Positions 3,476 to 62,671 of a DNA stretch of 64,000 nucleotides are shown piece after piece. Every line of letters starts with the position of its first letter. Position 1 is the first letter of the stretch. The stretch lies in the UHGV virus genome UHGV-0385297. One strand, written 5' to 3'. A model generated the notes under the pieces. That model worked only from the letters and a program-made list of their open reading frames with translations. It made no database searches and had not been told where the DNA came from. This stretch comes from a virus. The position numbers and the translations under genes were made by a program.

Positions 3476-3607
3476 CTCCATTCATTTGATATAATTGCAC
3501 ATCACTCGCAAGAGTGGTGTGCGAGGATTGAGCCTCTGGCTCGATCCTATAGTGCCACAGGCACATACTTAGTTATTTTCCATTTCATAAATAAAACTTT
3601 GAATTAA

Positions 3608-3691
3608 TGGGTAGAGCAGGAGTCGAACCTGCGGTGTTTCTGATGTAACCGATTTACAGTCGGTTGCCCTCGCCTCTAGGCACATCTACCC
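3608..3691 (-). tRNA. tRNA-Tyr (anticodon GTA), long variable arm
   Basis: The acceptor is GGGTAGA/TCTACCC. The anticodon arm is ACCGA-cTGTAaa-TCGGT and the T-arm is GCAGG-TTCGACT-CCTGC. Confidence 0.7.
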
Positions 3692-3766
3692 AAATTATAA
3701 GAGTGCGTAGCCATAATAGACCACGCACCCATACACAAAAAGACTAATGAATTTTCATATCTAAAA

Positions 3767-5099: not shown

Positions 5100-5399
5100 T
5101 TAAGCACCCTTTACAGCATCCTTTAAAGCGGAGCCAGCCTTAAACTTAACAGTCTTAGTAGCTGCAATTTCAATCTCTTCACCAGTAGCAGGATTTCTAC
5201 CAATTCTTGCAGGTCTTTCTGCTACATCAAAGCTACCAAAGCCGGTGATTGCAACCTTCTCACCCTTAACCAGTGCATCCTTAACTGCTTCAAAAACTGC
5301 ATCTACAAAAATAGTAGTATCCTTTAAAGAAATCTTTGCATACTTCTCGTCCTGTACTGCAATTGTCTGTACGTTCTTTACTAATTCGGTCTTGTTCAT
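5100..5399 (-). CDS. hup: HU/IHF-family DNA-binding protein
   Basis: The sequence MNKTELVKNV...GFGSFDVAERPARIGRNPATGEEIEIAATKTVKFKAGSALKDAV follows the canonical HU arm motif. An AAAAAGGAG RBS is present. Confidence 0.85.
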   Translation of the reverse strand: MNKTELVKNVQTIAVQDEKYAKISLKDTTIFVDAVFEAVKDALVKGEKVAITGFGSFDVAERPARIGRNPATGEEIEIAATKTVKFKAGSALKDAVKGA

Positions 5400-5907: not shown

Positions 5908-7098
5908 TTATACAAGTTCAATAGGGTAGTAACAAGCTACTCCTTTTTGATTACAGATACATACCATCTGAGATGGTTTTCCAGATAATCTCTTCTCAAT
6001 AGTAAATTGATCACCTGAACCAGCTAAAGTACCACCTCGAATCATTTTTACTCCATTTGCTTCATCAACTGCACAAGTGTGCATGTGACCCATAATTAAG
6101 GCATATGGGAAATACCCAAGCATAGAGCAGAGATTATATGTACCTGCTTTAGAGAATGGGTCGTAGTCTCCGTGAACAACAGTGTAAAACTTTCCACGAA
6201 TATCCAAGTCTACAATACCTACATCCAAATTTCTCTTTAAAATATGGATATTAGATATATGCTGTAAAGATAAACCAACACCCCATGTAATAATGTCATC
6301 AAGACGTTCATCGTGTAATGCATCTTCCTTACGCTCAATCCTGGTATGATTCCCAACTACACTTGAAATAAATACATTTGAAAAATGTTTAGACAATTCA
6401 TAGCAGAAAGATGAAATAAGTTCGGTTGCAATCTTAATCTGTTCGATAACATTTTCTCTATTTGTTACCTGTAAACTTTTATGGATGGACCCTGAAATCA
6501 TATCTCCACATAAAACCACATAACATTTCTCTGAATTATGTAACTCCCTAATAGCAATTACTTCGTTCAGTAATTTATTAAGCCTTTCAGCGGCAATATT
6601 GGAATTGTATTCTCCCCAAACAGAATTAAAGCACTGTCCAATATGAAAATCACTTAAGACAATTAACATATCATTATCAGATGTAACATCTACTTTTTCA
6701 TGAGTCTCAAAATTAGTACGCCCAAGCTGAGAAAGTGTACTTTCCAGCAGGTCTAATTTATTTTCTACACGGGCATCAATATAATTCTGTCTCTGCCAAG
6801 CAGTTCGTTCATCTCTAAACTGAATTTTCTTTCGTTCTAGTTCACGGATCTGTTTATCCAACTCATTATTACGGTTTTCCTTAGAGAATACTTCTGTATT
6901 GAAATCTTTAGCATTGTTGTAACGCTTACGATAAGCACTCTCAGAGCGATAAACGGTTTCATCTTCCCTAAACGCCTTATTAATCAATGCAGCAATTTCG
7001 TCCCATGTCATATCTAAAAGGCCGTTTTCTTTTGCCTGTCCTAATCTCCAAATATACTGAAGTTCGGATTCTCCGTTTAATAAATCTGTATTAAACAA
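5908..7098 (-). CDS. Calcineurin-like metallophosphoesterase with an N-terminal coiled coil (SbcD/Mre11-like?)
   Basis: The motifs LSDFHIG, LCGDMISG, VGNHT and GHMH are preceded by a ~130-aa heptad-rich region. Confidence 0.6.
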   Translation of the reverse strand: MFNTDLLNGESELQYIWRLGQAKENGLLDMTWDEIAALINKAFREDETVYRSESAYRKRYNNAKDFNTEVFSKENRNNELDKQIRELERKKIQFRDERTAWQRQNYIDARVENKLDLLESTLSQLGRTNFETHEKVDVTSDNDMLIVLSDFHIGQCFNSVWGEYNSNIAAERLNKLLNEVIAIRELHNSEKCYVVLCGDMISGSIHKSLQVTNRENVIEQIKIATELISSFCYELSKHFSNVFISSVVGNHTRIERKEDALHDERLDDIITWGVGLSLQHISNIHILKRNLDVGIVDLDIRGKFYTVVHGDYDPFSKAGTYNLCSMLGYFPYALIMGHMHTCAVDEANGVKMIRGGTLAGSGDQFTIEKRLSGKPSQMVCICNQKGVACYYPIELV

Positions 7099-7378: not shown

Positions 7379-8074
7379 TTAGATGATTTCGTCTAAACTG
7401 GTAATAATCTTGTCAGCTACGCCATATTCAATTGCTTCGCTTGAAGATAAATACCAATCGTTTTCAAAATTTTCATAAAATACATCTTCTGGAATTTTTG
7501 TTCTTGACAGAACAAATTTTCCTAATTCTTCAATTTGTCTCTGATAATTTAGAATAGCAGCAACGACATCATTGTAGCTTCCGCTAAACTGACCTGCTCC
7601 TTTATGGATGAGAAATTCAGCCGTTGGGAATGTCAGTCTCTCATGACAAGCTAAATAAATAAAGCAACCGCTAGAAGCTGCCATACCAACATTAATGCCA
7701 ATTACTTTTGTTGTACTTAAAGAAATTGTATCTACTAAGCAGTTGTTAACTTCTAAATCTCCGCCTGGGCTAAAGAAAATGACTTTAATTGGCTTACGAT
7801 CCTTTACAGGGATATTGTTTTTATTATCTTCGGAATTCCACTGCATAATCATTTTTGCATATTCCAAAGTCATAGTAGTGATTTCATCATCAATCCAGAT
7901 GATCCTATCATCATAATTCTTATAGAATTGTAAAAGACTAGGATCTGGAAGTTGTAAATTCTCTACGTTACTTGGAATTGCGATATCAAGATATGTAGCA
8001 TCTAATTTCTTTTTATTTGGGATTTCTTTAATCTTTATTTTATTTAGAAGTTCTTTAATTTCCTTTTTGTTCAT
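7379..8074 (-). CDS. ClpP-family serine protease with an N-terminal extension
   Basis: FFSPGGDL...GMAASSGCFIYLA...FLIHKG...EAIEYGVADKI aligns along the whole ClpP fold, including the Ser and His catalytic positions. Confidence 0.75.
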   Translation of the reverse strand: MNKKEIKELLNKIKIKEIPNKKKLDATYLDIAIPSNVENLQLPDPSLLQFYKNYDDRIIWIDDEITTMTLEYAKMIMQWNSEDNKNNIPVKDRKPIKVIFFSPGGDLEVNNCLVDTISLSTTKVIGINVGMAASSGCFIYLACHERLTFPTAEFLIHKGAGQFSGSYNDVVAAILNYQRQIEELGKFVLSRTKIPEDVFYENFENDWYLSSSEAIEYGVADKIITSLDEII

Positions 8075-8197: not shown

Positions 8198-9343
8198 TTA
8201 AGAACATAATAAAAGAGAGTCTTTATTTAGACTCTCTGGATTTATTATATAAGTTTTATCGTTATTAAAAAAATAATTATCTAAAATAGAATTTATATTG
8301 TCTCGCTCCCAATATGGAATACGCATTAATGGAATATTATAATCTATACAATGAAGATTCTTTGCCTGATCACGTTCTTTATTTTCCGTAAAATTAATGC
8401 TTGCAATTTCGATGCCATCTCCATTAAAATCGATAGGCATGTAATGTTGTTCTCCATCAAATTCAATCGCCATATTTAGTTTTGGTAAGTAAAAATCAAA
8501 TCTCAATGGGTTATCCCAATAGGCAGTATAAATTTCATGAGTGTCATGTTCATAAACATAATTATGCTCTTTTAAATAAGCTAAGATTGTTTTTTCTCCA
8601 ATGGAACAAGTACATTCATTGCATTTCGTTTTACCTTTTAAAAATAATCCATAACTTGTAGTATAGGGCTGACCGCATACCTCACAAGAAATTAAAAGGT
8701 TATAATCATTATAAGATGTATAATTCGATAATAATTTATTTTTCCCATTTGCTTCTATGGTTGCACGTACTTCTTCTATTGAATATTTTTGTTTTTCAAC
8801 CATAGATTCTCTGCCACAATAATAACATCCTCGTCCAGATTTAAGATGTATCCAATTATTCCATTGAATACCTTTATCTATATGTTTATTACAAATATAA
8901 GGCATTTTTGTTTCATTATTTACATAAATTGATGGCATCATAATACAATCATTATCTTTGAAAGTTGAAATCATTTTATTTAATGTTTCAACTTTTTTCG
9001 GGATATTTCTAGCTTCCCATTTTTCTTTTACTTTACCATGGATGTTTGGAGACGCAGTACCATATCTAATCTTTTTAACTTCAACACCTTTTATAGGCGC
9101 ACAATCACGACATGCCACCTTGGAAACAATTGTCGTACCTCTATAATATTTTTTTACTTGCATAGAAAATATTTTTCCACAATAGTCACATTGTACATCA
9201 ATAAATTTATCACTTGAATGGGGAATATCTTCGAACCTTACTTCAAATTTATCTCCAAACTTTGTAAACCGATATCCTTTTTCTTCATAATAAGATTTTT
9301 GTGAGCCATTCCATTCTACTAATAATTTTTCTGTAATAACCAT
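8198..9343 (-). CDS. Multi-zinc-ribbon protein with a C-terminal PD-(D/E)xK (DUF559-like) endonuclease domain; putative homing endonuclease
   Basis: About six CxxC modules precede the motif FDFYLPKLNMAIEFDGEQH...RD..K. The ATG at 9343 has a GAAAGGAA RBS; the track start at 9367 is TTG. Confidence 0.55.
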   Translation of the reverse strand: MVITEKLLVEWNGSQKSYYEEKGYRFTKFGDKFEVRFEDIPHSSDKFIDVQCDYCGKIFSMQVKKYYRGTTIVSKVACRDCAPIKGVEVKKIRYGTASPNIHGKVKEKWEARNIPKKVETLNKMISTFKDNDCIMMPSIYVNNETKMPYICNKHIDKGIQWNNWIHLKSGRGCYYCGRESMVEKQKYSIEEVRATIEANGKNKLLSNYTSYNDYNLLISCEVCGQPYTTSYGLFLKGKTKCNECTCSIGEKTILAYLKEHNYVYEHDTHEIYTAYWDNPLRFDFYLPKLNMAIEFDGEQHYMPIDFNGDGIEIASINFTENKERDQAKNLHCIDYNIPLMRIPYWERDNINSILDNYFFNNDKTYIINPESLNKDSLLLCS

Positions 9344-9370
9344 TTCGCAACGTTCCTTTCGTAACAAAGA

Positions 9371-9567: not shown

Positions 9568-10806
9568 TTACATCTCATCTGCAATAGCAGCAATTTTACT
9601 TCTATAAATATTTTGAAGTTCAACTTCTCCATAGAAGTCCTGGCCTCTAAACACTTCTGACATTCTTCTCATACCATTGTTCCCACCGGCATATTGAGCA
9701 AGATCAACCTGTGCAGTGTAATCACCATCAATAATACAGATAGAATCTTCACCGATTCTTTGAAGAGCAAGTTTCATTAAAGAGATATCCATATTCTGAG
9801 CTTCTGTGATATAAACACCTGCATTCATACCGCTAGTGTCAAAACCACGAATATCTGACATAGGTAAGAGAGAAAGTTTTCCATCAAAAATTAACCGCTG
9901 GACTTCAATCATTCCACCTAGTTTACTGCTTAACATATTTCCAATCTGAGAATCGCATAGTTTCTCGTCTTTTGAGCCAGGATAATACCCCAGCTTTGCA
10001 CTATTTGCAGTAGCAACTGTATTACAAAAAACAATAATTTTATCAATTTTATGTTTTTCTAACTGATAGAATAAGAAACCTAACCCAAGGTAACTTTTAC
10101 CTGTGCCTGCAGGTCCTTTAATCATAGTTACTTGATTGGTCTGTAAACTATTTAAAACAAGTTGTTGATAAATATCTCCTTGATATGGATTAATCGTTCC
10201 GAAGAAATTAGTTTTAATGTTTGTAAATTTTACATTCTTGTACATTTCTCCGTCCCATTTCATTTTGTCAACAACTTCATTCTTTTCATTTTTTATAATG
10301 AGATATTGATTTGGAAGTAAATCATAGATATTTTCTGTAAGATGTTCATAGAAATAAGCCATATCTGGTTCAGATAATGATTTCTCAATAAAACCTTTGT
10401 ATTCGTCATCAATATTGTTTTTTACACTATCAACATTAAGACCAAATACCCATTTAGCAATTGTTTTACATGCAATATCATTTGTGATGAATAATACATC
10501 TGGAATAGTTGTAGCACATGCACAAATTTGATTGTCTGGTGTGTTTTCAAGACCTTTTTCTTCAATAATATTTAAAATATCATTTGTCACAACCACAACA
10601 TTAAACTTTTCTGGATTCTCATCAAGAATATGAAGAGTTTTTCTTGCAGCAAATTTTACTTCTTCATCTTTATTTCTTGATACTTTGATGTGTTCCATTT
10701 CGTGAAGAGAAGTAGAACTAATATAAAATTTTTCAGTATTTTCTAATAACTTATTCTGCAATAGCAGAAGAGCATTAGTATCATAAAAAATAGCGATGGT
10801 TTCCAA
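9568..10806 (-). CDS. phoH: PhoH-like ATPase with an N-terminal PIN domain
   Basis: A Walker A motif (MIKGPAGTGKSY) is followed by a PhoH-type C-terminus (GDYTAQVDL, RSKIAAIA); the N-terminus is PIN-like. Confidence 0.8.
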   Translation of the reverse strand: METIAIFYDTNALLLLQNKLLENTEKFYISSTSLHEMEHIKVSRNKDEEVKFAARKTLHILDENPEKFNVVVVTNDILNIIEEKGLENTPDNQICACATTIPDVLFITNDIACKTIAKWVFGLNVDSVKNNIDDEYKGFIEKSLSEPDMAYFYEHLTENIYDLLPNQYLIIKNEKNEVVDKMKWDGEMYKNVKFTNIKTNFFGTINPYQGDIYQQLVLNSLQTNQVTMIKGPAGTGKSYLGLGFLFYQLEKHKIDKIIVFCNTVATANSAKLGYYPGSKDEKLCDSQIGNMLSSKLGGMIEVQRLIFDGKLSLLPMSDIRGFDTSGMNAGVYITEAQNMDISLMKLALQRIGEDSICIIDGDYTAQVDLAQYAGGNNGMRRMSEVFRGQDFYGEVELQNIYRSKIAAIADEM

Positions 10807-11070: not shown

Positions 11071-11143
11071 TGAATCCGGTTGGAATCGAACCAACGACAT
11101 AGGGATTTTCAGTCCCTTACTCTACCAACTGAGCTACAGATCC
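11071..11143 (-). tRNA. tRNA-Phe (anticodon GAA)
   Basis: A 73-nt cloverleaf: acceptor GGATCTG/CGGATTC, D-arm GCTC..GAGT, anticodon loop cTGAAaa, T-arm GTTGG-TTCGATT-CCAAC. Confidence 0.75.
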
Positions 11144-11170
11144 GTGCAACGGGTGTCTTACCCGAAAGAA

Positions 11171-11243
11171 TAGCGGGAGCTGGATTTGAACCAGCGTTCT
11201 CTAGGTTATGGGCCTAGTGACTTATCCTCTTGTCCATCCCGCA
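11171..11243 (-). tRNA. tRNA with anticodon CAT (Met or Ile2), atypical
   Basis: The anticodon arm is CTAGG-CCCATAA-CCTAG and the T-arm is GCTGG-TTCAAAT-CCAGC. Positions 1-72 look unpaired (T/T) and position 33 is C. Confidence 0.55.
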
Positions 11244-11321
11244 ATAATTTTATATATGGCTGGATATGTTTACACATATAATTCCATTTAACAGCCCACA
11301 GGCTGACCATGTATGTAATTT

Positions 11322-12140
11322 CTAATCACGAACTTTATTAATCTGATCTAATACTTCATCAATTTCTGCTTCATATAATTTCGCACAGCAAGCATATAAA
11401 TTATCAATATATCCGAACTGTTCTGCATATTTTATAACAGTAAGCTGATCTTTTTTCTTGACCTGCTTTAAGTTATAATTTTCAGTTTTCTGTTCTAAAT
11501 CAATATGGAAATTTTCTCTGAAACATTTGTATAATTCCTTATACCTGTTAGCATAATTTCCGCTTCTACGTCTACAAATCCTATTGATAATATCCTTTTT
11601 CTTATAAAGTGGGACATCATCAGTAAGACCGTTAATTACTTCTTGTTTATGAATAATTTCTTTTTTCTGGGAATTGATTTTTTGATCTTTTAATCTGAGC
11701 TGTTCATTCTGACTTCGAATAGTCTGAAGAGTAGTAGAAAATAGAAGTTTAGTATTCTCATCTGCAAATGGAAGATATGTGTCTATGAATAAGTTATCAT
11801 TGTTTATATATCCGCCAGTTTTACGAATTGTTGGAAGTACCTCAGATGTTACCCAGCGCTTAAAACGCTTGGCAGACTCAAGTTTACTGCCAAAAATCAG
11901 CGCATATAATCCAGATTCATTAATAATTACCATTTTCTGAATTCCACCAGGGGTCATCAAATCAGTGACTCCCTTATCTGTTCCATCAACATGTTTTGCT
12001 ACGGCATTGGCAATAGATTTTCCTTTCCCATATCCAAGTGCTTCTGCTATATCTTTTCCCACGAACCACGGCTCGCCATCAATTACTAAAGTTCTTACTT
12101 CACCAAATTCTTCATTTTTAAAAATTTCTAAATCTTGCAT
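11322..12140 (-). CDS. Bro-N domain antirepressor-like protein
   Basis: The N-terminus FKNEEFGEVRTLVIDGEPWFVGKDIAEALGY...SGLYALIFGSKLESAKRFKRWV follows the Bro-N/KilA-N pattern. Confidence 0.75.
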   Translation of the reverse strand: MQDLEIFKNEEFGEVRTLVIDGEPWFVGKDIAEALGYGKGKSIANAVAKHVDGTDKGVTDLMTPGGIQKMVIINESGLYALIFGSKLESAKRFKRWVTSEVLPTIRKTGGYINNDNLFIDTYLPFADENTKLLFSTTLQTIRSQNEQLRLKDQKINSQKKEIIHKQEVINGLTDDVPLYKKKDIINRICRRRSGNYANRYKELYKCFRENFHIDLEQKTENYNLKQVKKKDQLTVIKYAEQFGYIDNLYACCAKLYEAEIDEVLDQINKVRD

Positions 12141-12372
12141 AAATTATTTCCTTCCTACGCATTTGGGCAGCGCATCACCACATACAATATTTACAGTTAC
12201 TTGCCGATAACTCTTGTTATCTTATGAGAGATGACTGCGGCAACAATCATCTCGTAAAGAAATATTTATGCAAAACAGAGGTAATCACCTCTCATAAAAC
12301 AACAAGTTATTGTACGAATTTCTATTAATATATTCTCTCTTTCACACATGGAAAATTTTTGAGAATTATGAT

Positions 12373-12446
12373 AGCGAGATAAAGGAATCGAACCGATATA
12401 TCTCCGCATTAAAAGTACGGCGCTCTACCTTTTGAGCTAATCTCGC
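12373..12446 (-). tRNA. tRNA-Lys (anticodon TTT), weak T-stem
   Basis: Acceptor GCGAGAT/ATCTCGC and D-arm GCTC..GAGC are good. The anticodon arm is CCGTA-cTTTTaa-TGCGG. The T-loop GGTTCGATTCC is present but its stem pairs poorly, so this may be a pseudo-tRNA. Confidence 0.5.
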
Positions 12447-12898
12447 CAGACGCCAATAGGCATACTACAGGACGCAGTACACCCATCAGCAAAAGAAAAA
12501 ATATAGAAGAAAGGGTAAAACATATGAATATCTACATCTAAAATTTTAAGTAGCCATAGCAGCCAAGTACAAATCTTTACGGCAATTACATAACCCGCAT
12601 ATAAACTTTCTCCTGGATTTGATAAAATTTTAAAATTTATACATTGAACTTTAGAAGAAAAAGAAGTTTGAAAAATGAGTTTTAAACATTGAATTCTGAG
12701 CTTTGAACTTTTATCATCTTATGTAATATACTATTACAAAATATATTATTTGATAAAAATTTGCATTAGGCGCACAATTTTCTTCAAATTCCAATATTTA
12801 TTAACCTTTTAAGGAATATCTTCCTCTCCGTGATAACCCGCACGGAGAAACGGGATGTAAGTTCAAGATTTTCGCTATAACTACAAAAATATCACATT

Positions 12899-13531
12899 TT
12901 AAAAACTTACTTCGATGAAAGAAGTAGCATTACTCAGAGTAAGCTGAGAGTCAATGTTACTTAAGAAACCATCAATGTCTGCTTCAAGTTTCTGGATCTT
13001 ATCATAAAGATCAATCGGGTCTACAAACTCATATTCGTTCTGTAAACGATATGGTTTTACTACTGCATCCTGTTCCTCAGTAGTGAGTTTCTTAGCGCTG
13101 TCTTTACCAACTAAGGTAGTAAGCAGACTATCCACTTTTTCGTCTACCTTTTTGTTCTCTTTATCAACTAAAGTAGTGGCAGCACTGTAATCCAGCTTCA
13201 TCTTGCGTAAAAGGTTCTGTTCGTACTCAATGGAATTTTTACGCTCAATGCCTTCTGCACGAGTCATTTCCACACCATTTACTGTAATCTTTGTAATAGC
13301 ATTGGATAATACAATTTTAGATTTTAACTCTGAATGATTTTTAATAAGATCGGTTGCAGATTGAAAATCTGCCTTGCATCTATCTTTAAATGTCTCTTTG
13401 GAAACGGCACCAATTCTATCGGATGATTTCTTAGCTGCACCACAAAAATTTGCGTTTACAATTGCTTTATTAATTCTTGCGTCTAATAATTTTAGTTCAG
13501 TTAAAGCTTCGGTAACTGTAATTTTTCTCAT
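12899..13531 (-). CDS. Hypothetical protein
   Basis: A 210-aa ORF with an AAAAGGAG RBS. Confidence 0.5.
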   Translation of the reverse strand: MRKITVTEALTELKLLDARINKAIVNANFCGAAKKSSDRIGAVSKETFKDRCKADFQSATDLIKNHSELKSKIVLSNAITKITVNGVEMTRAEGIERKNSIEYEQNLLRKMKLDYSAATTLVDKENKKVDEKVDSLLTTLVGKDSAKKLTTEEQDAVVKPYRLQNEYEFVDPIDLYDKIQKLEADIDGFLSNIDSQLTLSNATSFIEVSF

Positions 13532-13668
13532 AATGATATACTCCTTTTTATCCTGATTGCATTTTTAAACGACTGCATTGTGCCGATGTTACGATTAATT
13601 ACATTGTTTTCCATACCTGTTATATAACACCATAAAATCACTCAAAAATGGCGTAATTAAGCCAAAAA

Positions 13669-14532
13669 CTAAGCTTTTCTATTTGTGGTATTACGTTTTT
13701 CGTTATATTTTTTATATCTAATTAAATCATTTTTTCTCTTACACTCACCACAATACATTTTCTTATTTCCTGTTTTTTCAATCAGTGCGCCACATTGTTT
13801 ACAGCGAGTGTACTTATTATTGTGTCCACGCTTAACTCCATAATATTCTTTCTGATAATTTCGAATATAATAGGAAAGAGAACGATTTATGTACTTAACA
13901 TAGAAATGATCTTCAGTAATAAAATCAAAATTATTTACAAGCTTTGTCTTATCTTCATACTCGTCAATCAATTTACAATTGTCAAAACACTTTCTAAGAA
14001 AACCCTCAATTATGATTTTGTACTCGTTCCAGGAAAGGGTCATTTTTTCTTTCTGAAATCTTTCTTTCGTGGTTAAAGCTTTATCCATAATGTCATCTAT
14101 GACAGAAGTAGCATTTTCTTCGGTCATATCTACACCAGAAGCCCATTTGTAATACAATTGTTTTGGCTTTTTGAGCAAATCCATATATTCCTTATTTAGA
14201 ATTACTTCTTTATCAAAATATTTCGTATAAATATTATTTATTTTTTGCCTTATAATTGAACACCAATTTTGATTTTTGGAAACAGATTTATAGTATTTAT
14301 ATTCAATCATGGACCATGCATCAAATACTTGTCCAACTGGTGTTCCCAGTAAATTCTTTGCTACCTTAAATCGAATAGCTTTCTTATATGTTCTTCTTTT
14401 ATTTCCACATGACCAGATGGCGGAGCAGAACGAAGAGAAAACTTCGTCCTTTTGCTCCTGAGTCTGTAGTTCTTTGTATTTTTCTATAATTTCATATAGA
14501 AATGTTTCGTTACAGTCGTAAATATGTATCAC
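13669..14532 (-). CDS. Hypothetical protein with a C-terminal zinc ribbon
   Basis: It carries CKQCG...CGEC at the C-terminus. Its start overlaps the end of the polymerase gene by 23 nt. Confidence 0.5.
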   Translation of the reverse strand: MIHIYDCNETFLYEIIEKYKELQTQEQKDEVFSSFCSAIWSCGNKRRTYKKAIRFKVAKNLLGTPVGQVFDAWSMIEYKYYKSVSKNQNWCSIIRQKINNIYTKYFDKEVILNKEYMDLLKKPKQLYYKWASGVDMTEENATSVIDDIMDKALTTKERFQKEKMTLSWNEYKIIIEGFLRKCFDNCKLIDEYEDKTKLVNNFDFITEDHFYVKYINRSLSYYIRNYQKEYYGVKRGHNNKYTRCKQCGALIEKTGNKKMYCGECKRKNDLIRYKKYNEKRNTTNRKA

Positions 14533-17140
14533 CTACTTCAAATTCATAATATTTTCCAAGATATTCATAAGTATTATATGATTTGTATGGAACTTCTCGA
14601 ATAGAAATATTTCGCTTTGGATTAGTATTATTTTTTAAATTCTCAATAATATATTCTCCATAAGCAGCCCAAGCTAAAGATTTACTGATTGAAAGAGAAG
14701 AGTATGAAGTTGCAATAACATAATTGGCAATAACATCTTCGTCAAGTTTAAGTTTTTCAGAAATATTATCTTTATATTTCTTTACAACTTCGTCCATACT
14801 AAAATCATTATTTTCATCTTTATGTAAATTTAGATGCTGCTTTATTTCATCTGCATACATATTGATGAATTTCTTACACTCTTTAATGACTCCTTTATCT
14901 TTTAGATTAAGGTCATTGTTGACGATTAAGCATCTTGTATCTATAAGATCATTAACACTGTTATCCCATTTAATATTCTTTTTCTCCCATGTCTCGATGT
15001 ATTCACATAATTCATTCATAGGAGAAGGAGACCTATAGGCATTCAATTTTTCTTTCTCATCTGGTTCAACTCCCTTATTTTTACTAAGAATATTCTGATA
15101 CGTTTTCATTTTTTGAGGATAATTATGAAGCAAGAAATACGGTAGCTGTTTTAAATGTTTTCTCAGACCACTATTCATATGCCACCTAAAACCGGTTTTA
15201 AGAAAATCAATTTCTTTGCCCTGGAAAATTCTTAGAAGAGAAGAGGAATCAGAGTATAACTTCTGAATATCTGGATTTGTTGTATACCGATTCTCAATGC
15301 TTGTTGCTACATTGGTTATTTCACCAATACGGTTATCTCTTGTCATTACTTCATACTCAATTAAATTTTCTTTCGTATATGGTTTTGACTTTGCTGTAAC
15401 CTTATCTTCGACATCAAGAATAATATGTTTGTCAATTTTTGAACCAATAACAATTGGTTCGTTGCACAAAAAGAAAATATCCCCGTCAAAATCTGCCCCT
15501 CCCTGCTGCGGGGCAGATATATCATACATATTAAACATCACGACATCTTGATCTTTAAAATATCCGAACCATTTATTTAAAATGTCATTTCGCACAATTT
15601 GAATCTTGTTTACTTCAGATGGGTCCACAAGAGGAGATCTAAAAGAAGCACAATATCCTGGTTCAAAATTTGCAGTATATAATTCTCTTTCTTTTAAGCA
15701 ACCGACTGGATTTTCTCCGACTGCATATTGAAGATAACCAATCATATCACCAACACCTGTATGATAAAAACCAGAACAATAAATTTTTCCTACTTTTGCC
15801 TCATCAATGGATTTTTTTAATTTTCTATAAATAAACTGCTTTACTGCAGGATCCTTCAACATTACATCATTGATCAATGCTGCTTCGAGATATTTACTTT
15901 CTGGCTCATATCCATCTGTATCATTTATACCCATGAATTTGTAGGTATAAAATTTATCTCCTTTAATAATCTTCTCGAATAGGTTAGTAGTGTATTTTGC
16001 CAATTTGATGATTTTTCCATCATTGTCAGGATTTAAAACGTCATATTCTTTTCTATTTTTATCTACAAAACTATTGATGTATTTCTCATTCCATAGATCA
16101 AGACATTGTAAATACTGAAAATTCATTCTGGTGTACTTGTTTAAGTGCTTTACATGATGGCTATACTTACTAATACCTAATTTAAACTGATATTTCTGTA
16201 ATGTCTTCATATATTCAATCCATGCATCATTTCCATACTTTGATTTAAAAATCTTATGACCTTTAAACATTGAGATGTTCCAGATACAATCAATATCATC
16301 GATTTTATGCTCATATCCATAGATATCAGTAATAGTAGTGTATCCCCATTCCTTTAGAATTTGTTTAAATGGAACATATACGGAATATCCTTTTATAAAT
16401 GGCAGACGAACCTGGTTTCCAATAACGTCATAGCCTAAATCCAACTGTGTACTAACAGTTTTCATAAATTCTCTTTCATGACAACCACATCCATCAAAAG
16501 GAGATAATCCTATATCTCTTAAACCTTCTTCAATTTCTCTAACTTTATATTTTTTGGACTCACCAGTTTCTTTATCTACGAAAGTTTTTTCTTTTTCTAT
16601 GACATATTTGATAAGCTGATCATTTAAAGTTTTTTCATATTCACCGATGATAACAATATTTGGAATATAATCTTTAATGAGAGTACAGGAGCTAAACGGG
16701 AGACATCTTTGCGCTTCATATTTAGAAATAACGCACTCATCAATTTCAATATCCATTTGAGTGATCATGTATAATTCATCGAAAATTTCGTCACATACAA
16801 AAGCAGTAATACCGTCTTTTCCCTGAGATGCAGATTTTCCAAAACGAGAATAATGAGTACCGTTATACGTAAATCCATTATTAAGAATATCTCGCAGTGC
16901 GGTTTCTTGTTTTGGATTCTTTTTTGCGACTATAAGCATAAGCTCTTTAATATGTGTTGAAAATCTACCTCTTAGCCTTTGAATCTGATCAAACAATAAG
17001 GAATCACCTTGTTTAATAAGATATTCATTATCTATTTCTTCATTTTTACTTAGACTCAAATCATATTCTGAATCAATGAGTTTTTTGATTGGTAACTTAA
17101 CCAAAGTGTATTGAATTGATTTTATAATAAACACCACCAT
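14510..17140 (-). CDS. YonO-like single-subunit RNA polymerase candidate
   Basis: This 876-aa protein contains QQGGADFDGDIFF. ADFDGD is the invariant Mg-binding loop of multisubunit RNAP beta-prime and of the SPbeta-prophage YonO polymerase. Its size and its HU-like neighbour also fit YonO. Confidence 0.55.
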   Translation of the reverse strand: MVVFIIKSIQYTLVKLPIKKLIDSEYDLSLSKNEEIDNEYLIKQGDSLLFDQIQRLRGRFSTHIKELMLIVAKKNPKQETALRDILNNGFTYNGTHYSRFGKSASQGKDGITAFVCDEIFDELYMITQMDIEIDECVISKYEAQRCLPFSSCTLIKDYIPNIVIIGEYEKTLNDQLIKYVIEKEKTFVDKETGESKKYKVREIEEGLRDIGLSPFDGCGCHEREFMKTVSTQLDLGYDVIGNQVRLPFIKGYSVYVPFKQILKEWGYTTITDIYGYEHKIDDIDCIWNISMFKGHKIFKSKYGNDAWIEYMKTLQKYQFKLGISKYSHHVKHLNKYTRMNFQYLQCLDLWNEKYINSFVDKNRKEYDVLNPDNDGKIIKLAKYTTNLFEKIIKGDKFYTYKFMGINDTDGYEPESKYLEAALINDVMLKDPAVKQFIYRKLKKSIDEAKVGKIYCSGFYHTGVGDMIGYLQYAVGENPVGCLKERELYTANFEPGYCASFRSPLVDPSEVNKIQIVRNDILNKWFGYFKDQDVVMFNMYDISAPQQGGADFDGDIFFLCNEPIVIGSKIDKHIILDVEDKVTAKSKPYTKENLIEYEVMTRDNRIGEITNVATSIENRYTTNPDIQKLYSDSSSLLRIFQGKEIDFLKTGFRWHMNSGLRKHLKQLPYFLLHNYPQKMKTYQNILSKNKGVEPDEKEKLNAYRSPSPMNELCEYIETWEKKNIKWDNSVNDLIDTRCLIVNNDLNLKDKGVIKECKKFINMYADEIKQHLNLHKDENNDFSMDEVVKKYKDNISEKLKLDEDVIANYVIATSYSSLSISKSLAWAAYGEYIIENLKNNTNPKRNISIREVPYKSYNTYEYLGKYYEFEVGDTYLRL

Positions 17141-18706: not shown

Positions 18707-19324
18707 TTAATGAGTATGTTTGTTATTTTCATATTCATTTTCAATCTCCTTTGCAATTTTATTACAATATAATTTATATAGTTTTATAACTTCATCATTT
18801 GAAAATCTAATCGTCATATAATTATTCTCCAAAAAGAAAATTCTTCGCATTTTATCTTTTAATTGCTGTAGTTTGTTTGTATGATTTGATCCGTCTATTT
18901 CAATTATCGTTCTCGATTTTCTATCTACAAAATCGGCAATATATCTTTTTACACCATATTTTTTGTATCCATCTTTACCTGTTCCAAATGATATTTGGCA
19001 CTCCAAGTATGGATACATTTCTTTAAATATTCGTTCATGTTTCGTGGTGAATTTATCATTACAACCGCCATGTAAATTAGATTTTTCATAAATTAAATAA
19101 TCTTTATAATTATGTACTTGGGTTATAACATTGTACAACGGTAAACTACTCTCAAATATTTTTTGAGATAAATCAGACAAACAAATGTTATTCATTTTAG
19201 AAAGCTTCTTTTTTAATAAAATCCAATTAAGACGTTCTTTGGAAACATCTATAGATTCTTGATACTTTCTATTAAAAACATTCAGTTCCTCAATGTTAAT
19301 CTGTTGCATTTTTAATTCCTCCAA
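18707..19324 (-). CDS. PD-(D/E)xK (DUF559-like) endonuclease-domain protein
   Basis: RYIADFVDRKSRTIIEIDGSNH...IRFSNDEV matches the C-terminal domain of 8198-9343. Confidence 0.55.
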   Translation of the reverse strand: MEELKMQQINIEELNVFNRKYQESIDVSKERLNWILLKKKLSKMNNICLSDLSQKIFESSLPLYNVITQVHNYKDYLIYEKSNLHGGCNDKFTTKHERIFKEMYPYLECQISFGTGKDGYKKYGVKRYIADFVDRKSRTIIEIDGSNHTNKLQQLKDKMRRIFFLENNYMTIRFSNDEVIKLYKLYCNKIAKEIENEYENNKHTH

Positions 19325-20146: not shown

Positions 20147-20353
20147 TTATTTGTATCCTTTCTTATATAAGTCTTTGCATACTGCATAACCGATTGATGC
20201 CAAGTCATTGCCTTTTTTAATCTTTTCTTTCCAATTCTGCATACATACCTCTATAGAATTGGGAAATTTATAAGTCTTGTAAAATTCGTACATGATTGCA
20301 TATAACTCTTTAAATTCTTTTACTGTATAAATCTTTGTTTCTTTTGATGTCAT
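20147..20353 (-). CDS. Hypothetical small protein
   Basis: The ORF is 68 aa. Confidence 0.45.
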   Translation of the reverse strand: MTSKETKIYTVKEFKELYAIMYEFYKTYKFPNSIEVCMQNWKEKIKKGNDLASIGYAVCKDLYKKGYK

Positions 20354-26710: not shown

Positions 26711-26866
26711 AGGCAGACCATGCTCTGCCAGCTCTGAGTTATGGAAACCGCTACGAGGTTCAGAGCAGACAACGGAATTTATTTCGGCTAATATCCATAG
26801 GTAACTTGTAAACCAGTATAAAAACCGTTATACTTGACTTATAAAAGTGAAAGGCGGTGGAAAGGA

Positions 26867-34924: not shown

Positions 34925-35103
34925 TGGCTTATAAAAGAAAAACAAAGGATTGTTATGCAATCGAAGGGAATTGTGGTTACGGATGGGATATTGAATGTAA
35001 TTGTGAAGATAGAGCAGATGCAAAAGCACAGTTGAAGACATACAGAGAAAATGTAAATTATCCTGTGCGAATTAAGAAATGGAGAGAAAGGATTGATGAT
35101 TAG
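34924..35103 (+). CDS. Small Cys-rich protein
   Basis: RBS GAAGGAGG. The start overlaps the previous stop (TAATGG). Confidence 0.45.
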   Translation: MAYKRKTKDCYAIEGNCGYGWDIECNCEDRADAKAQLKTYRENVNYPVRIKKWRERIDD

Positions 35104-36064
35104 TATGAAATATACAATAGACACATTAAGAGAGATTAACGCAAGATTTTGTGGTTCGCATATACTTATGAATTACGATGTAGATAAGGCAAATATGTAT
35201 GTCGAACTTATAAAAAATACACGATCTGAAAAGACTCCAAGTGTAGGTGATTGCGTTAGATATACAAATGAATATGGAGATTACTATGGAGCAGCTCATA
35301 TTGAAAAAGCAGATGCGAATGAAGTTTATATCTGTGAACAACCATATACACCTTTTGTTTATGAATATGAAGGCAGAATCAGTTGTAATACAAGTGGTGG
35401 AGCATGGACACATTTACCAACAAGAGAACTGAAATATATAGGTAAAATTGAAAAGAGATTTTGTGATTGGGGTAATTGTGGAGGCTGTGCAGATGGTGCT
35501 ATTGATTTTATAGCAGAAGTAAGTTTATGGGAATATGTAGATAGTAAAAATCCTTTTGTAAGTGAAAATGGATATAAGTTCACAACAAAGGATTTTGATA
35601 AACAGTATATATCATTCAATCCTAAAGATGATTCACCTTATGTATATTTTGGAGAAGGTTGTGTCTGGAAAAGTAAAACAGATTTATATGCTTATCTGAG
35701 AACATATAGAGCAGAAATTTTCAAAGGACATTGGCAGAATCAGTTCATTGTGTGGACTTGGAAAGAGAAACAGCATCATATATCACCAACGGAATTTGAT
35801 AGTCTTAAATTAGAAGAAGATACATTCCTGATGAATGGTGACATCATGAGATGTAAAAGAAAATATGATGAAATTACCCATACTGTACACACATATTATG
35901 TTTGGTATTGGGACGATCCAACTAAAGACTTCTTTGAGGCAAGTGCAGAACAGAATAAAATAAGAGAAAAATATTATACACTTGATAGAAAAATTCCAAC
36001 ATATATTGTTGCAAGAGAAGAATTAAAGTCTGGAATTGAAATTCCAAAACATAAGGAGGTGTAA
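35093..36064 (+). CDS. Hypothetical protein (323 aa)
   Basis: A long ORF that is Cys-rich in places (CDWGNCGGCADGAIDF). Confidence 0.55.
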   Translation: MMISMKYTIDTLREINARFCGSHILMNYDVDKANMYVELIKNTRSEKTPSVGDCVRYTNEYGDYYGAAHIEKADANEVYICEQPYTPFVYEYEGRISCNTSGGAWTHLPTRELKYIGKIEKRFCDWGNCGGCADGAIDFIAEVSLWEYVDSKNPFVSENGYKFTTKDFDKQYISFNPKDDSPYVYFGEGCVWKSKTDLYAYLRTYRAEIFKGHWQNQFIVWTWKEKQHHISPTEFDSLKLEEDTFLMNGDIMRCKRKYDEITHTVHTYYVWYWDDPTKDFFEASAEQNKIREKYYTLDRKIPTYIVAREELKSGIEIPKHKEV

Positions 36065-59638: not shown

Positions 59639-59686
59639 TTACATTACAAATCACACAATCGGTGGTCAATAAAAGACTGCCGGTAT

Positions 59687-59760
59687 GGATCGTTAGCTCA
59701 GTTGGTTAGAGCAATCGGCTCATAACCGATCGGTCACAGGTTCAAGTCCTGTACGATCCA
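59687..59760 (+). tRNA. tRNA with anticodon CAT (Met or Ile2 type)
   Basis: A 74-nt cloverleaf: acceptor GGATCGT/ACGATCC, D-arm GCTC..GAGC, anticodon arm ATCGG-cTCATaa-CCGAT, T-arm ACAGG-TTCAAGT-CCTGT. Confidence 0.75.
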
Positions 59761-59786
59761 TTGACGAAAAAGGAGGGAAAAGGAAA

Positions 59787-60412: not shown

Positions 60413-62671
60413 ATGGGGAAAGTAGAAAAAATAAATCTGAATGAAAAACAGATGGAATTAGTTACATATTATTCTGAAAATGATATGGCGAGATTAAAAC
60501 GGATTTGTAATCCAATCATTAATATGAAGAACGTAGATCAGAAGGATTATGATGACTTGTACAGTGATGCACTGAAAGTTCTTCTGGAAAGTGTTCAGAC
60601 ATTTGATGAAACAGCAGATTGTTCCTTTAATACATTTCTTACAGGAAATATTAAACGGTCATTCTATGATTGGAGCCGTGATCAGCTGACTTGGAAGCGG
60701 TGCAACCTGGAATATGAAACAGATGAAAATGGAGAGATTAAAAAAGATAAGAATGGAAAACCAATAAAAAAGAAAGTCTATGATGTTTCTATGGATGTTC
60801 CATTGGAAGATGGATCTGATTTAAGAGAAAAAATCCCGTCCAATTTCAGTGTAGAGACAGAACTTGGATTAAATGGAGATGATACTGTAGAAAAGGTAAA
60901 TATACTTCTTGATAGTATGCCACGGTTACAGAAGCAAATTACTATTTTGAAAATGAGGAAAGTTCCTGTAGAAAAAATTAAGAAGATCTTAAATATATCG
61001 CAAAGCGATTATGAAAACGCAGTAGAGCGGATTAAGAGAAATGAAAATATGGAAATGTTTTTAAAAGACACGAAATATAATATGGAGGAATATAATATGA
61101 AAGACAGAGTAATTGCTATTAGCGAATCCGAAGATTACAGAATGGACAAATTACCAATGTTCACATTATTGCAGCAGAAAAAAGATGGTGACATTAACTG
61201 TAAATACATTTTACAGAGAAAACCATTTCAGTGGTCAGAAGAAGAAGCGAATCGTTATTTCTGTAGAATATTAAGTTCTCTTCCTGTTCCTGAAATCGTT
61301 TTATGTGAGCAAAAAGTAAAGGAATTGATTATTGCATATTTAATTGATGGTTTACAGCGTTTATCTTATGCGGAGGCATTTAGAAATAATCGTATTAAAA
61401 TTGGAAGTGTAGGTGCAGAAAGACACTTAATTGAATATAGAGAATATTCTTTAGACGAAAACGGAAATCGAATTTTAGATGACAACGGATTTCCAACCTA
61501 CGAATTAAAAATATGTGATGTTATTGGAAAATACTACAAAGATCTTCCTGATGAATTAAAAAAGAGATTTGATGTATTTAATTTCAATGTGACTAAGTTT
61601 TTTAACTGCACGGATCAGCAAATTGCGGATCACCTTCGCGACTACAACAACCACTCATCTATGAACAAGGAGCAGTTGGGACTGACCAAGATTACTACCG
61701 TAACAGCTGGGAAAATTAAGAAAATCTCTGAGAAGAATATGTTTTTCAAAAATTGCTGTAAAATCACTACAACTAATGAGACTAAAGGTAAACTGGAACG
61801 TGTAGTTGCCGAAGCAATTATGCTTTTGTTCCATAAGGACGATTGGAAAGCTAAATTGGAAAATGCCTATAAGTATGTAGATGAAAATGCAACAGACGAA
61901 GAGTTTGAACAGCTTAATTCTGATTTAAACCGTTTGGAATTAGCAATTGGAGAAAATAATAAGGAAGTTACCAAGTTATTTACTCCAGCTGCTATTCCTA
62001 TGTGGGTGGCGGTATTCAATGAGTTTACAAAGTATAACATTGAAGATAGCAGATTTGTAGACTTCCTTAATGCATATGTAACCGATTTAAAGGATCGTAC
62101 AGTAGATGGTGTAAGCATGAAAACTTTTAAATCAGAACAGAGTAAAAAGAGAACTACCATCATGGGAAAGATCAATCTGTTGGTTACTCTTATGAAAGAT
62201 TATTTACATATTGAAGATACAGAAGAAACAGAAAATACATATGAAGAAACAACTGATGAAAAAGTAACTGAAAACGAGAATAATACAGTAGAAGAGACAA
62301 CAGAAGATAATGTTACTACAGAAGAAATGGAATCAGTAGTAACTGAATCACAGTCAGAAGAAGATCATGAGTTACAGTTCGTAAAAGAGGTAGCTGATCC
62401 AAATGTAGAACAGGAAGATATTGAACTGTATAAGGATTTTATTGATGACTATCTTAAGTTAGACTCCTGTGTATACAAAGTTGGTATGCCGGTATTGTTA
62501 GCACTTATGGCATATGCTTGTAATGCAGAGAAAGACGAAGAGTTTAGTGAATGGCTCAATGAAATGGAAAAACAGCATAGAATTTTCACAGGTTCAGAGA
62601 AAGATAATTATGAGAAGTTGAAAGCAGAATTTCTTCAGTTTTTAGATTCTCATAACAATAAAGCAGCATAA
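60413..62671 (+). CDS. Sigma-70 family (region 2 plus region 4) N-terminal domain fused to a DUF262 (ParB/sulfiredoxin-fold) domain and a long C-terminal extension
   Basis: Region 2 reads DDLYSDALKVLLESVQTFDETADCSFNTFLTGNIKRSFYDWSRDQ and region 4 reads LQKQITILKMRKVPVEKIKKILNISQSDYENAVERIKRN. From about aa 250 comes KLPMFTLLQ...QRKPFQWSEEEANRYF...IAYLIDGLQRLS, the DUF262 DGQQRLT-type signature. The C-terminal 400 aa are acidic and helical. Confidence 0.55.
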   Translation: MGKVEKINLNEKQMELVTYYSENDMARLKRICNPIINMKNVDQKDYDDLYSDALKVLLESVQTFDETADCSFNTFLTGNIKRSFYDWSRDQLTWKRCNLEYETDENGEIKKDKNGKPIKKKVYDVSMDVPLEDGSDLREKIPSNFSVETELGLNGDDTVEKVNILLDSMPRLQKQITILKMRKVPVEKIKKILNISQSDYENAVERIKRNENMEMFLKDTKYNMEEYNMKDRVIAISESEDYRMDKLPMFTLLQQKKDGDINCKYILQRKPFQWSEEEANRYFCRILSSLPVPEIVLCEQKVKELIIAYLIDGLQRLSYAEAFRNNRIKIGSVGAERHLIEYREYSLDENGNRILDDNGFPTYELKICDVIGKYYKDLPDELKKRFDVFNFNVTKFFNCTDQQIADHLRDYNNHSSMNKEQLGLTKITTVTAGKIKKISEKNMFFKNCCKITTTNETKGKLERVVAEAIMLLFHKDDWKAKLENAYKYVDENATDEEFEQLNSDLNRLELAIGENNKEVTKLFTPAAIPMWVAVFNEFTKYNIEDSRFVDFLNAYVTDLKDRTVDGVSMKTFKSEQSKKRTTIMGKINLLVTLMKDYLHIEDTEETENTYEETTDEKVTENENNTVEETTEDNVTTEEMESVVTESQSEEDHELQFVKEVADPNVEQEDIELYKDFIDDYLKLDSCVYKVGMPVLLALMAYACNAEKDEEFSEWLNEMEKQHRIFTGSEKDNYEKLKAEFLQFLDSHNNKAA

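Follow-up and report, generated by a model that had tools for sequence, protein, structure and literature searches.

Introduction

Among two-barrel RNA polymerases (RNAPs), one branch is considered similar to a single-chain enzyme ancestral to all cellular RNA polymerases, and YonO, encoded by the Bacillus subtilis prophage SPbeta, is its only characterised member from a bacterial virus. YonO works processively on DNA templates and is the RNAP for the late operon of SPbeta; it forms elongation complexes and elongates by itself in vitro, and catalysis is lost when its triad is changed to 3N (Forrest et al. 2017, PMC5467207). The same 2017 study left open the identity of the YonO promoter and the need for a recognition factor (PMC5467207). 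Here, we describe a locus in the UHGV virus genome UHGV-0385297 that offers candidates for both. The stretch of DNA that was analysed, referred to below as the window, is 64,000 nt long, and all coordinates are positions in this whole stretch. On its minus strand, the window carries genes for an 876-residue protein that we assign to the YonO family and for a partner protein that is strictly co-inherited with it and has a module in common with YonO, followed by a conserved, oriented non-coding element that precedes late-type genes.

Polymerases of the two-barrel type have eight invariant active-site residues, namely four Asp, three basic residues, and one Pro, which in QDE-1 are D709, R738, K743, R962, P964, D1007, D1009, and D1011 (Ruprich-Robert and Thuriaux 2010, PMC2919709). 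These residues provide the reference against which the active site of the window protein is compared below.

Results

Sequence, predicted fold, and active site of the polymerase

The polymerase gene (14510-17140, minus strand) is an intact, full-length open reading frame (ORF) with an ATG start that encodes a single chain of 876 residues. A preliminary description of the window, made from the DNA letters, had drawn attention to an ADFDGD motif in this ORF and had proposed a YonO-type polymerase; the ORF and its motif were confirmed, and the identity is supported by the sequence and fold comparisons that follow. The protein matches the Pfam family PF05183 (RNA-dependent RNA polymerase (RdRP), eukaryotic-type) with 51 bits against a gathering cut-off of 23.8 (E = 1.3e-13), and the match pairs residues 78-711 with positions 54-578 of the 582 in the profile. 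It also belongs to phrog_8308 (E = 6e-62), a PHROG of unknown function. The alignment to B. subtilis YonO that had been suggested is collinear end to end by BLASTP, with 23% identity over 825 columns (E = 4e-17), and tblastn against a 2.3-Gb phage database reaches SPbeta yonO at 6e-11. A chance occurrence of DFDGD is ruled out by these homology statistics, in particular the PF05183 score and the tblastn match to yonO. The nearest isolated relatives in the phage collection are Thomasclavelia phage TR-TP1 (30% identity), Enterocloster phages (23%), the SPbeta group, Perkons, c-st, and 0305phi8-36.

A single-sequence search of Protein Data Bank (PDB) sequences with the polymerase gave no match, and no YonO structure was present among the PDB entries searched. 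A structural model of the polymerase was built with AlphaFold2 on 45 diverse homologs. The model is confident along the whole chain, with a predicted local distance difference test score (pLDDT) of 91.4 and a predicted template modeling score of 0.88. Using the full-length model, Foldseek returned QDE-1 and RDR2 (probability 1.0, E of ∼1e-18, and template modeling (TM) score of ∼0.5), so the check for two double-psi beta-barrels that had been put forward gave a match to two-barrel enzymes. Weaker matches were found to P74 gp62 (E = 1.4e-5) and the RNAP of the crAss-like phage phi14:2 (E = 2.5e-3), and the largest subunits of multisubunit RNAPs appeared at E values of 0.06 or worse with TM scores of ∼0.07. 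The Pfam family RNA_pol_Rpb1 does not match the protein, and the likeness to beta-prime is limited to the metal loop and does not include the clamp, bridge helix, or trigger loop.

The strand pattern of the model, together with the profile alignment to QDE-1, places two barrels within the chain, although the boundaries are approximate. The barrel resembling that of the beta subunit spans residues ∼195-290 (16271-16558, minus strand) and contains D216 (in FDGCG) and R245 and K250 (in VRLPFIKG), which correspond to the QDE-1 sequence mnDGVGRMS...RFGSAKG. The beta-prime-like barrel spans residues ∼453-560 (15461-15784, minus strand) and contains R501-S-P503 and the three aspartates D550, D552, and D554. 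The latter form the predicted catalytic metal-binding loop DFDGD (residues 550-554; 15479-15493, minus strand), as read from the translation, within QQGGADFDGDIFF (residues 545-557). The order of motifs in the chain is D216, R245/K250, R501/P503, and D550-554, with the beta-like barrel first. Conserved lysines had been expected in a second barrel. Basic residues are indeed present and invariant, but the barrel that carries them lies N-terminal to the DxDGD barrel and one of them is an Arg, as in QDE-1.

In profile alignments to QDE-1 and RDR2, residues D216, R245, K250, R501, P503, D550, D552, and D554 align one-to-one with the eight QDE-1 residues, and all eight are invariant in the 45 homologs, whose identity falls as low as 21%. 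The loop aligns with DNDGD in YonO, DLDGD in RDR2, and DYDGD in QDE-1; the claim that DFDGD itself is retained in YonO was thus incorrect. Since the second position varies among homologs (F, L, M, V, Y, W, N), the conserved signature is DxDGD and the exact match to the NADFDGD of beta-prime is incidental. The alignment to YonO stops just before the zinc ribbon of YonO, and the window polymerase ends in a short beta-strand domain according to the BLASTP alignment and the model. Taken together, the homology, the predicted fold, and the residue conservation leave little doubt that the 876-residue protein is a YonO-family two-barrel RNA polymerase with a complete active site.

A conserved partner gene and its zinc ribbon

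The polymerase gene is followed by a gene (13669-14532, minus strand) whose first 23 nt, beginning with a GTG start codon, overlap it. Its product is a protein of 287 residues with a helical N-terminal domain, a C-terminal zinc ribbon, and a basic helix (AlphaFold2 pLDDT 87.3). The proteins encoded in the first 25 kb of the window were compared with 32 genome loci, selected as one genome per species, and only the polymerase and the 287-residue partner were consistently present. Thirty of the genome loci extend past the polymerase on its downstream side, and in 30 of 30 the partner gene comes immediately next, with a product 36-68% identical to that of the window. As a rule, the partner start and the stop codon of the polymerase overlap, while most of the other neighbouring genes differ between loci. 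It is also found next to the polymerase in at least 26 loci from IMG/VR. The partner family comprises 930 to 1476 database members, none of which has a real name.

The zinc ribbon of the partner, CKQCGALIEKTGNKKMYCGEC, covers residues 244-264 (13741-13803, minus strand, by translation) and is followed by the basic tail RYKKYNEKR. Residues 237-280 fit the pattern CxxCG-x(10-12)-YCxxC plus a basic tail similar to YKKYNxKR. This C-terminus is 44% identical over 45 residues to the last 45 residues of YonO (791-835; pairwise E = 6e-4), and the similarity reaches past the four cysteines into the basic tail, which reads YKKYNKKR in YonO. When the partner was compared with all phage records, 14 of the 16 weak matches fell on YonO C-termini. 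The ribbon is 37.5% identical to Goe11 yonO_2 (E = 2e-6), and the Perkons C-terminus also matches. Generic zinc-ribbon Pfam matches occur in the partner family as well. In SPbeta, Goe11, and Perkons, the polymerase itself includes the ribbon as a fused part. In the window family, c-st (CST177, hhalign E = 1.5e-5), and PMBT24 (E = 1.7e-4), the ribbon ends the product of a separate ORF that overlaps the polymerase gene on its downstream side. In total, it was found fused or separate in at least five phage lineages. The c-st record says only that CST177 resembles the C-terminal part of YonO, and neither the YonO paper (PMC5467207) nor the two-barrel review (PMC2919709) mentions a zinc ribbon.

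An overlapping downstream gene at this position had been listed in the preliminary description as part of an SPbeta-like layout. The gene and its 23-nt overlap are real, but its counterpart is the fused C-terminal zinc ribbon of YonO rather than a gene of SPbeta. Based on the pattern of fusion and fission, the strict linkage, and the apparent translational coupling given by the overlapping start, we propose that the partner acts with the polymerase. The sequence comparisons suggest that the two probably work together as a two-protein enzyme, unlike YonO.

Two other relationships of the partner were considered. The TR-TP1 protein gp4 was compared as a possible homolog and was rejected, as it has neither similarity to the partner nor a zinc ribbon. 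Similarity to the sigma-70 family was not supported at the level of sequence profiles: hhalign of the partner family against five E. coli sigma paralogs returned a probability of 0.2%, and no Sigma70 Pfam match was found in any of 73 members of the family.

A conserved element following the two-gene operon

At default sensitivity, a blastn comparison of positions 1-24000 of the window with the genome loci revealed almost no conserved non-coding DNA. By k-mer counting and alignment of the 200 nt after the partner stop, we found a conserved non-coding element, GATTTTATGGTGTTATATAACAGGTATGGAAAACA, which in the window lies at 13605-13639 on the minus strand and which we consider a candidate late promoter (alignment of 29 loci). 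A gap-free weight matrix missed the site in the window due to a 1-nt indel, and an Infernal sequence-only model, R1, was used instead; the window site scores 23.8 bits with R1. The element is conserved in 29 sequences even though most neighbouring genes differ between the loci. It is composed of a T-tract, a short spacer, and a core, and the core occurs in two variants. Type I, present in the window, reads TATATA(T)-CA-NN-TRTGGAA, and type II reads TATATATACAGTAGTGGA.

Across 639 kb of related loci, R1 gave 29 matches, all of which are on the polymerase strand and none of which is upstream of the polymerase gene. Matches outside the training alignment include two in the locus L017 and second copies in L014 and L019. 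In L017, the 5′ T-tract of the element follows a strong hairpin. A weak second match in the window (20227-20259, minus strand; R1 12 bits, E = 0.018) is located in the divergent region that heads the minus-strand cluster and may be due to chance. Conservation extends ∼16 nt beyond the AT-rich core, and RNAalifold gave no consensus RNA structure for the element, its conservation being at the level of primary sequence. In a sigma-70 scan, the element site was not among the best 60 of 88 matches, and TATATAT contains no hexamer that combines A at position 2 with T at position 6.

The element core is ∼75 nt before the ATG of the next gene (12899-13531, minus strand), which has an AAAGGAG ribosome-binding site. 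This first gene after the element encodes a 210-residue protein of phrog_1491 (annotated tail fiber; E = 2.7e-60), for which no homolog was found among the 32 genome loci. In related loci, the genes after the element encode a recurrent phrog_4051 protein, a virion structural protein (phrog_2729), and an endolysin.

The 2.9 million contigs of IMG/VR were also searched. A degenerate type I pattern was found in at least 120 loci, and 27 of the matches listed have a polymerase module. Among the type I matches listed that have a partner gene, the element in every case shares the strand of that gene and follows its stop codon at a distance of 45-110 nt. A strict pattern with 20 specified bases gave 19 matches, of which 10 are at polymerase modules, eight are in small capsid-encoding contigs, and one is unassigned because the locus was cut at the match. 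A degenerate type II pattern gave 60 matches, and all 60 are without a polymerase module; apart from the one in L046, most of these are probably chance matches.

Copies of the element in small capsid-encoding contigs

The small contigs from IMG/VR (L104, L108, L127, L131, L159, L161, L175, L192, L216, L224-L236, and L046) are 10-19 kb in length. Their gene order is a tyrosine integrase, an Ig-domain protein, one to four tandem elements at ∼110-nt spacing, a scaffold protein (phrog_172), a major-head protein (phrog_544), and further genes. Examples of the tandem elements are found at L127:4298-4432 and L235:2249-2621. No polymerase gene was found in the stretches of these contigs that were examined, nor does the window encode homologs of their proteins. 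The contig L046 carries the type II variant, so that both variants occur beside polymerase modules as well as in small capsid contigs.

The placement of tandem copies immediately before the late genes with the highest expression argues for a promoter and against a terminator. A sequence of ∼35 nt that is common to otherwise unrelated elements, in turn, points to recognition by a specific trans-acting factor. That the small contigs are assembly fragments is disfavoured, since the large polymerase-bearing contigs (89-173 kb) hold only one exact copy of the strict pattern. The small capsid contigs may be satellites. Its position and orientation, the way in which it is conserved, and its tandem arrays make the element the best candidate for a promoter through which the polymerase would enter late genes, an assignment for which we consider the case to be about evenly balanced.

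Gene context of the locus

The coding strand of the window is minus for the first 21 kb and plus for the remainder, and the GC skew changes accordingly. The genes present are those of a large temperate phage. The window encodes two tyrosine recombinases, a repressor-like regulator, and anti-repressors, along with a replication-initiation-like protein, a beta-clamp, a deoxycytidine monophosphate deaminase, a methyltransferase, and several HNH endonucleases.

The preliminary description had also pointed to an HU-like gene near the polymerase as part of the SPbeta-like layout. This gene is real; it encodes a DNA-binding protein of 99 residues (5100-5399, minus strand) that matches Pfam Bac_DNA_binding (E = 8e-30) and is 54% identical to SPbeta YonN. 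Downstream of the polymerase and on its strand there is also a yonJ-like exonuclease of 396 residues (5908-7098, minus strand), which by tblastn is 24% identical to SPbeta yonJ and 26% identical to TR-TP1 gp6, and which belongs to the exonuclease family phrog_284 (E = 2e-59). In SPbeta, TR-TP1, PMBT24, and Perkons, an HU gene is likewise found downstream of the polymerase gene, either directly or a few genes on. The order polymerase, HU, and then yonJ-like exonuclease or lysis/terminase genes, all on one strand, recurs in these four phages and in the window. The proposed layout holds for the HU gene, the yonJ-like gene being a further resemblance to SPbeta, and it does not hold for the overlapping gene, which SPbeta lacks.

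Among the genes located in the window between the polymerase operon on one side and the yonJ-like and HU genes on the other are four that look inserted. They encode a ClpP-family protease (7379-8074), an HNH/homing endonuclease (8198-9367), a PIN-PhoH ATPase (9568-10806), and a Bro-N protein (11322-12140), all on the minus strand. All four are missing in the more compact syntenic relative L005. Six tRNA genes are present in the window, for Ser, Tyr, Phe, Met, Lys, and Met (705-789, 3607-3692, 11071-11143, 11170-11244, and 12372-12447 on the minus strand, and 59686-59761 on the plus strand). Five of the six are spread over the gaps between genes in the minus-strand cluster that follows the polymerase.

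Several features lie further from the locus. An ORF of 752 residues (60413-62671, plus strand) matches sigma-70 region 2 of Pfam at its N-terminus, with 24.5 bits where the cut-off is 24, as well as the sigma factor family phrog_351 (E = 1.4e-7), which suggests that the phage may also redirect the host RNA polymerase. An Rfam match to the hepatitis delta virus-like ribozyme of F. prausnitzii (RF02682) at 26731-26800 (plus strand) scores 44.1 bits against a gathering score of 44. A DUF559 (endonuclease-like) protein is encoded at 18707-19324 (minus strand) and a DUF4121 protein at 35093-36064 (plus strand, E = 4e-50). A megablast search with 12 kb around the polymerase gene returned no match in the phage collection, and an exact look-up of the left-end integrase gave no record.

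Distribution of the polymerase family

A HMMER scan of 1.84 billion cluster representatives identified 777 clusters, defined at 50% identity, with E ≤ 1e-3, and 498 with E ≤ 1e-10. A word-indexed search returned 869 proteins, the best 120 of which are 73-100% identical to the query. The metagenome collection includes an identical polymerase protein, and numerous homologs of 73-83% identity are spread across metagenome contigs. Nearly all of the 32 genome loci are from Lachnospiraceae and other Clostridia, and the location of one locus inside a complete Lacrimispora chromosome indicates that the polymerase loci are prophages.

The preliminary description considered divergent homologs outside Bacillus to be poorly catalogued. 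The family does have entries in Pfam and PHROGs; what remains of the claim is that its members are unnamed or are labelled RNA-dependent RNA polymerase in phage records. The records of TR-TP1, PMBT24, and Perkons carry this label, and the main text of the PMBT24 genome paper does not mention an RNA-dependent polymerase or YonO. Some homologous genes are disrupted. The yonO of Goe11 (L035, 1326-5123) is split by an ORF for a GIY-YIG/NUMOD3 homing endonuclease, and the polymerase gene of c-st (L042, 3980-7913) breaks off precisely at its GMDMD catalytic motif, to continue ∼370 nt further on.

Discussion

Our proposal is that the window encodes a single-chain two-barrel polymerase of a large Lachnospiraceae temperate phage or prophage that is predicted to be catalytically competent. 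The two double-psi beta-barrels would form one active site, to which the N-terminal beta-like barrel would contribute D216, R245, and K250, and the C-terminal beta-prime-like barrel would contribute R501, P503, and the metal-binding loop D550-x-D552-G-D554. The polymerase would copy DNA and transcribe the late genes of the phage, that is, those for structure and lysis. The protein from the translationally coupled gene would work with it, bringing as its zinc ribbon and basic tail the module that is fused in YonO, and the helical N-terminal domain of this partner may supply promoter recognition or DNA anchoring. The element just downstream of the two-gene operon would then be the promoter read by the polymerase. 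By analogy with YonO and from the synteny, the polymerase is most likely a DNA-copying transcriber of late genes. We also regard the explanation as a whole, comprising the YonO-family polymerase, its partner, the late-gene role, and the element as promoter, as likely.

Several observations weigh against parts of this proposal, and they are best considered along with the other explanations of the locus. No structural gene cluster lies within the 64-kb window, and transcription of late genes is thus not directly visible. Both profile and fold place the polymerase nearer to cellular RdRPs than to multisubunit RNAPs, and its sequence says nothing about whether the template is DNA or RNA. The enzyme could be RNA-dependent and copy or amplify RNA, such as small regulatory or anti-defence RNAs, instead of transcribing phage DNA. 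The matched Pfam family is that of eukaryotic RdRPs, the best solved relatives by profile and fold are RDR2 and QDE-1, and the same label appears in the TR-TP1, PMBT24, and Perkons records. That label, however, merely copies the name of the Pfam family, and PDB entries for QDE-1 include complexes with a DNA template. In double-stranded DNA phages the gene heads late or structural clusters, and YonO, the only member of the family characterised from a bacterial virus, is a processive DNA-dependent RNAP for late genes (PMC5467207). We therefore regard an RNA-copying role as improbable. The notion that the gene is a decaying or inactive relic in a defective prophage draws on the disrupted homologs of c-st, at GMDMD, and Goe11, by the GIY-YIG endonuclease ORF. 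Here, in contrast, the ORF is intact and full length with all catalytic residues in place, the model is confident throughout, and an identical protein as well as many homologs of 73-83% identity are on record, which makes a relic highly improbable.

The roles of the partner and the element are less firmly supported than the identity of the polymerase. The polymerase might be truly single-subunit like YonO, in which case the 287-residue protein would be an independent zinc-ribbon regulator that binds DNA or RNA, or another late factor that shares the operon. YonO elongates alone in vitro, the N-terminal domain of the partner has no detectable counterpart in YonO and no sequence-level relative of known function, and small zinc ribbons are common and can converge. 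Nor is the ribbon universal, as the downstream gene in TR-TP1, the closest isolated phage, encodes a protein (gp4) that lacks it. Against such independence stand the linkage in all 30 genome loci and at least 26 IMG/VR loci with a conserved overlap of start and stop among mostly variable neighbours, the extension of the similarity into the tail YKKYNxKR, the concentration of 14 of 16 weak matches on YonO C-termini, and the presence of the ribbon, fused or separate, in five or more phage lineages. An unconnected regulator thus appears rather unlikely to us, and a two-protein enzyme is favoured. As for the element, it could serve as a promoter for the host RNAP with a host or phage sigma factor, terminate the operon or mark its 3′ end, or be the operator site of a DNA-binding protein. 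A partly conserved TTTAnA ∼16 nt upstream of TATATA keeps the host RNA polymerase, with a host or phage sigma factor, in consideration as the reader, and the window itself encodes a protein with sigma-70 region 2. The AT-rich TATATAT core recalls late promoters that are read by phage sigma-like factors, such as the T4 late promoter TATAAATA. The 5′ T-tract, which follows a strong hairpin in L017, also speaks for a role of this kind. In addition, the window contains a single strong copy in 64 kb, and no similar motif was found in the SPbeta yonN-yonK intergenic region (L001 8761-10441), which has no annotated gene and holds the mapped YonO start, although the exact position of that start was not placed. 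The element is also physically linked to the module, so co-inheritance alone is not proof of recognition by the polymerase. On the other side, the core lacks a hexamer with A at position 2 and T at position 6, the site ranks outside the best 60 of 88 sigma-70 matches, and conservation reaches ∼16 nt past the core with no conserved RNA structure. Up to four copies at ∼110-nt spacing before scaffold and major-head genes are hard to explain as terminators, and the type I and II variants are both shared between polymerase modules and small capsid contigs. Some role other than a promoter for the phage polymerase is thus a serious possibility, albeit one that we consider less probable than the promoter assignment.

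As a tentative extension suggested by the sequences, YonO-type polymerases of clostridial phages could be two-component systems in which a catalytic subunit and a specificity or anchoring subunit, whose ribbon is fused in Bacillus phages, read a late promoter of ∼35 bp. The small capsid elements may then be satellites that tie capsid production to the polymerase of a helper. If they are satellites, they would be an example of a parasite that reads the private transcription signal of its helper phage.

The polymerase itself is an additional member of a known family. The arrangement, in which the ribbon resides on a conserved partner protein of its own and a candidate cognate promoter accompanies the two genes, has apparently not been described before. 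It makes promoter recognition by YonO-type enzymes directly testable with two purified proteins and one DNA template. The analysis further corrects the common mis-annotation of these enzymes as RNA-dependent RNA polymerases. Lastly, the family is abundant in prophages of gut Lachnospiraceae and therefore bears on the timing of late genes in large temperate phages of the gut.

Comparison with known systems

The closest described system is YonO of SPbeta (PMC5467207). Both proteins are single chains of ∼840-880 residues that align collinearly and have both barrels and all eight active-site residues, and both come from large temperate Firmicutes phages in which the polymerase gene is upstream of, and on the same strand as, HU and yonJ-type genes. 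They differ in that identity is only 23%, the loop is DNDGD in YonO and DFDGD here, and the ribbon and basic tail that are fused in YonO are located here on a separate 287-residue protein with an extra helical domain of ∼235 residues. Moreover, the polymerase described here ends in a small beta-strand domain, and its host clade is Lachnospiraceae rather than Bacillus.

Phage c-st (CST179/178/177) and Enterocloster phage PMBT24 are similar in organization, with a polymerase followed by an overlapping ORF of ∼240-280 residues (240 in PMBT24) that ends in a zinc ribbon. Their polymerases have 21-23% identity to the one in the window, no similarity was detected between the N-terminal domains of the downstream proteins, and the c-st polymerase is interrupted at the catalytic motif. 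QDE-1 and RDR2 (PF05183; PDB 2J7N and 7ROZ) share the order of barrels in one chain and the motifs DG.G, R....KG, R.P, and D.DGD. At 11-15% identity, however, they are enzymes of eukaryotic RNA silencing and use RNA templates, their N-terminal and head domains differ, and they have no phage context.

The two-barrel fold is also shared with gp66 of the crAss-like phage phi14:2 (PDB 6VR4) and gp62 of P74 (PDB 8F5M), which are phage-encoded transcription enzymes. These proteins are far more distant and have other sizes and domains, gp66 being a chain of 2166 residues that is packaged in the virion. Single-subunit RNAPs of the T7 type have an unrelated right-hand (Pol I-like) fold with no homology to the window polymerase, and the analogy is one of function, in that a phage polymerase with its own promoter of ∼20-35 bp drives the late genes.

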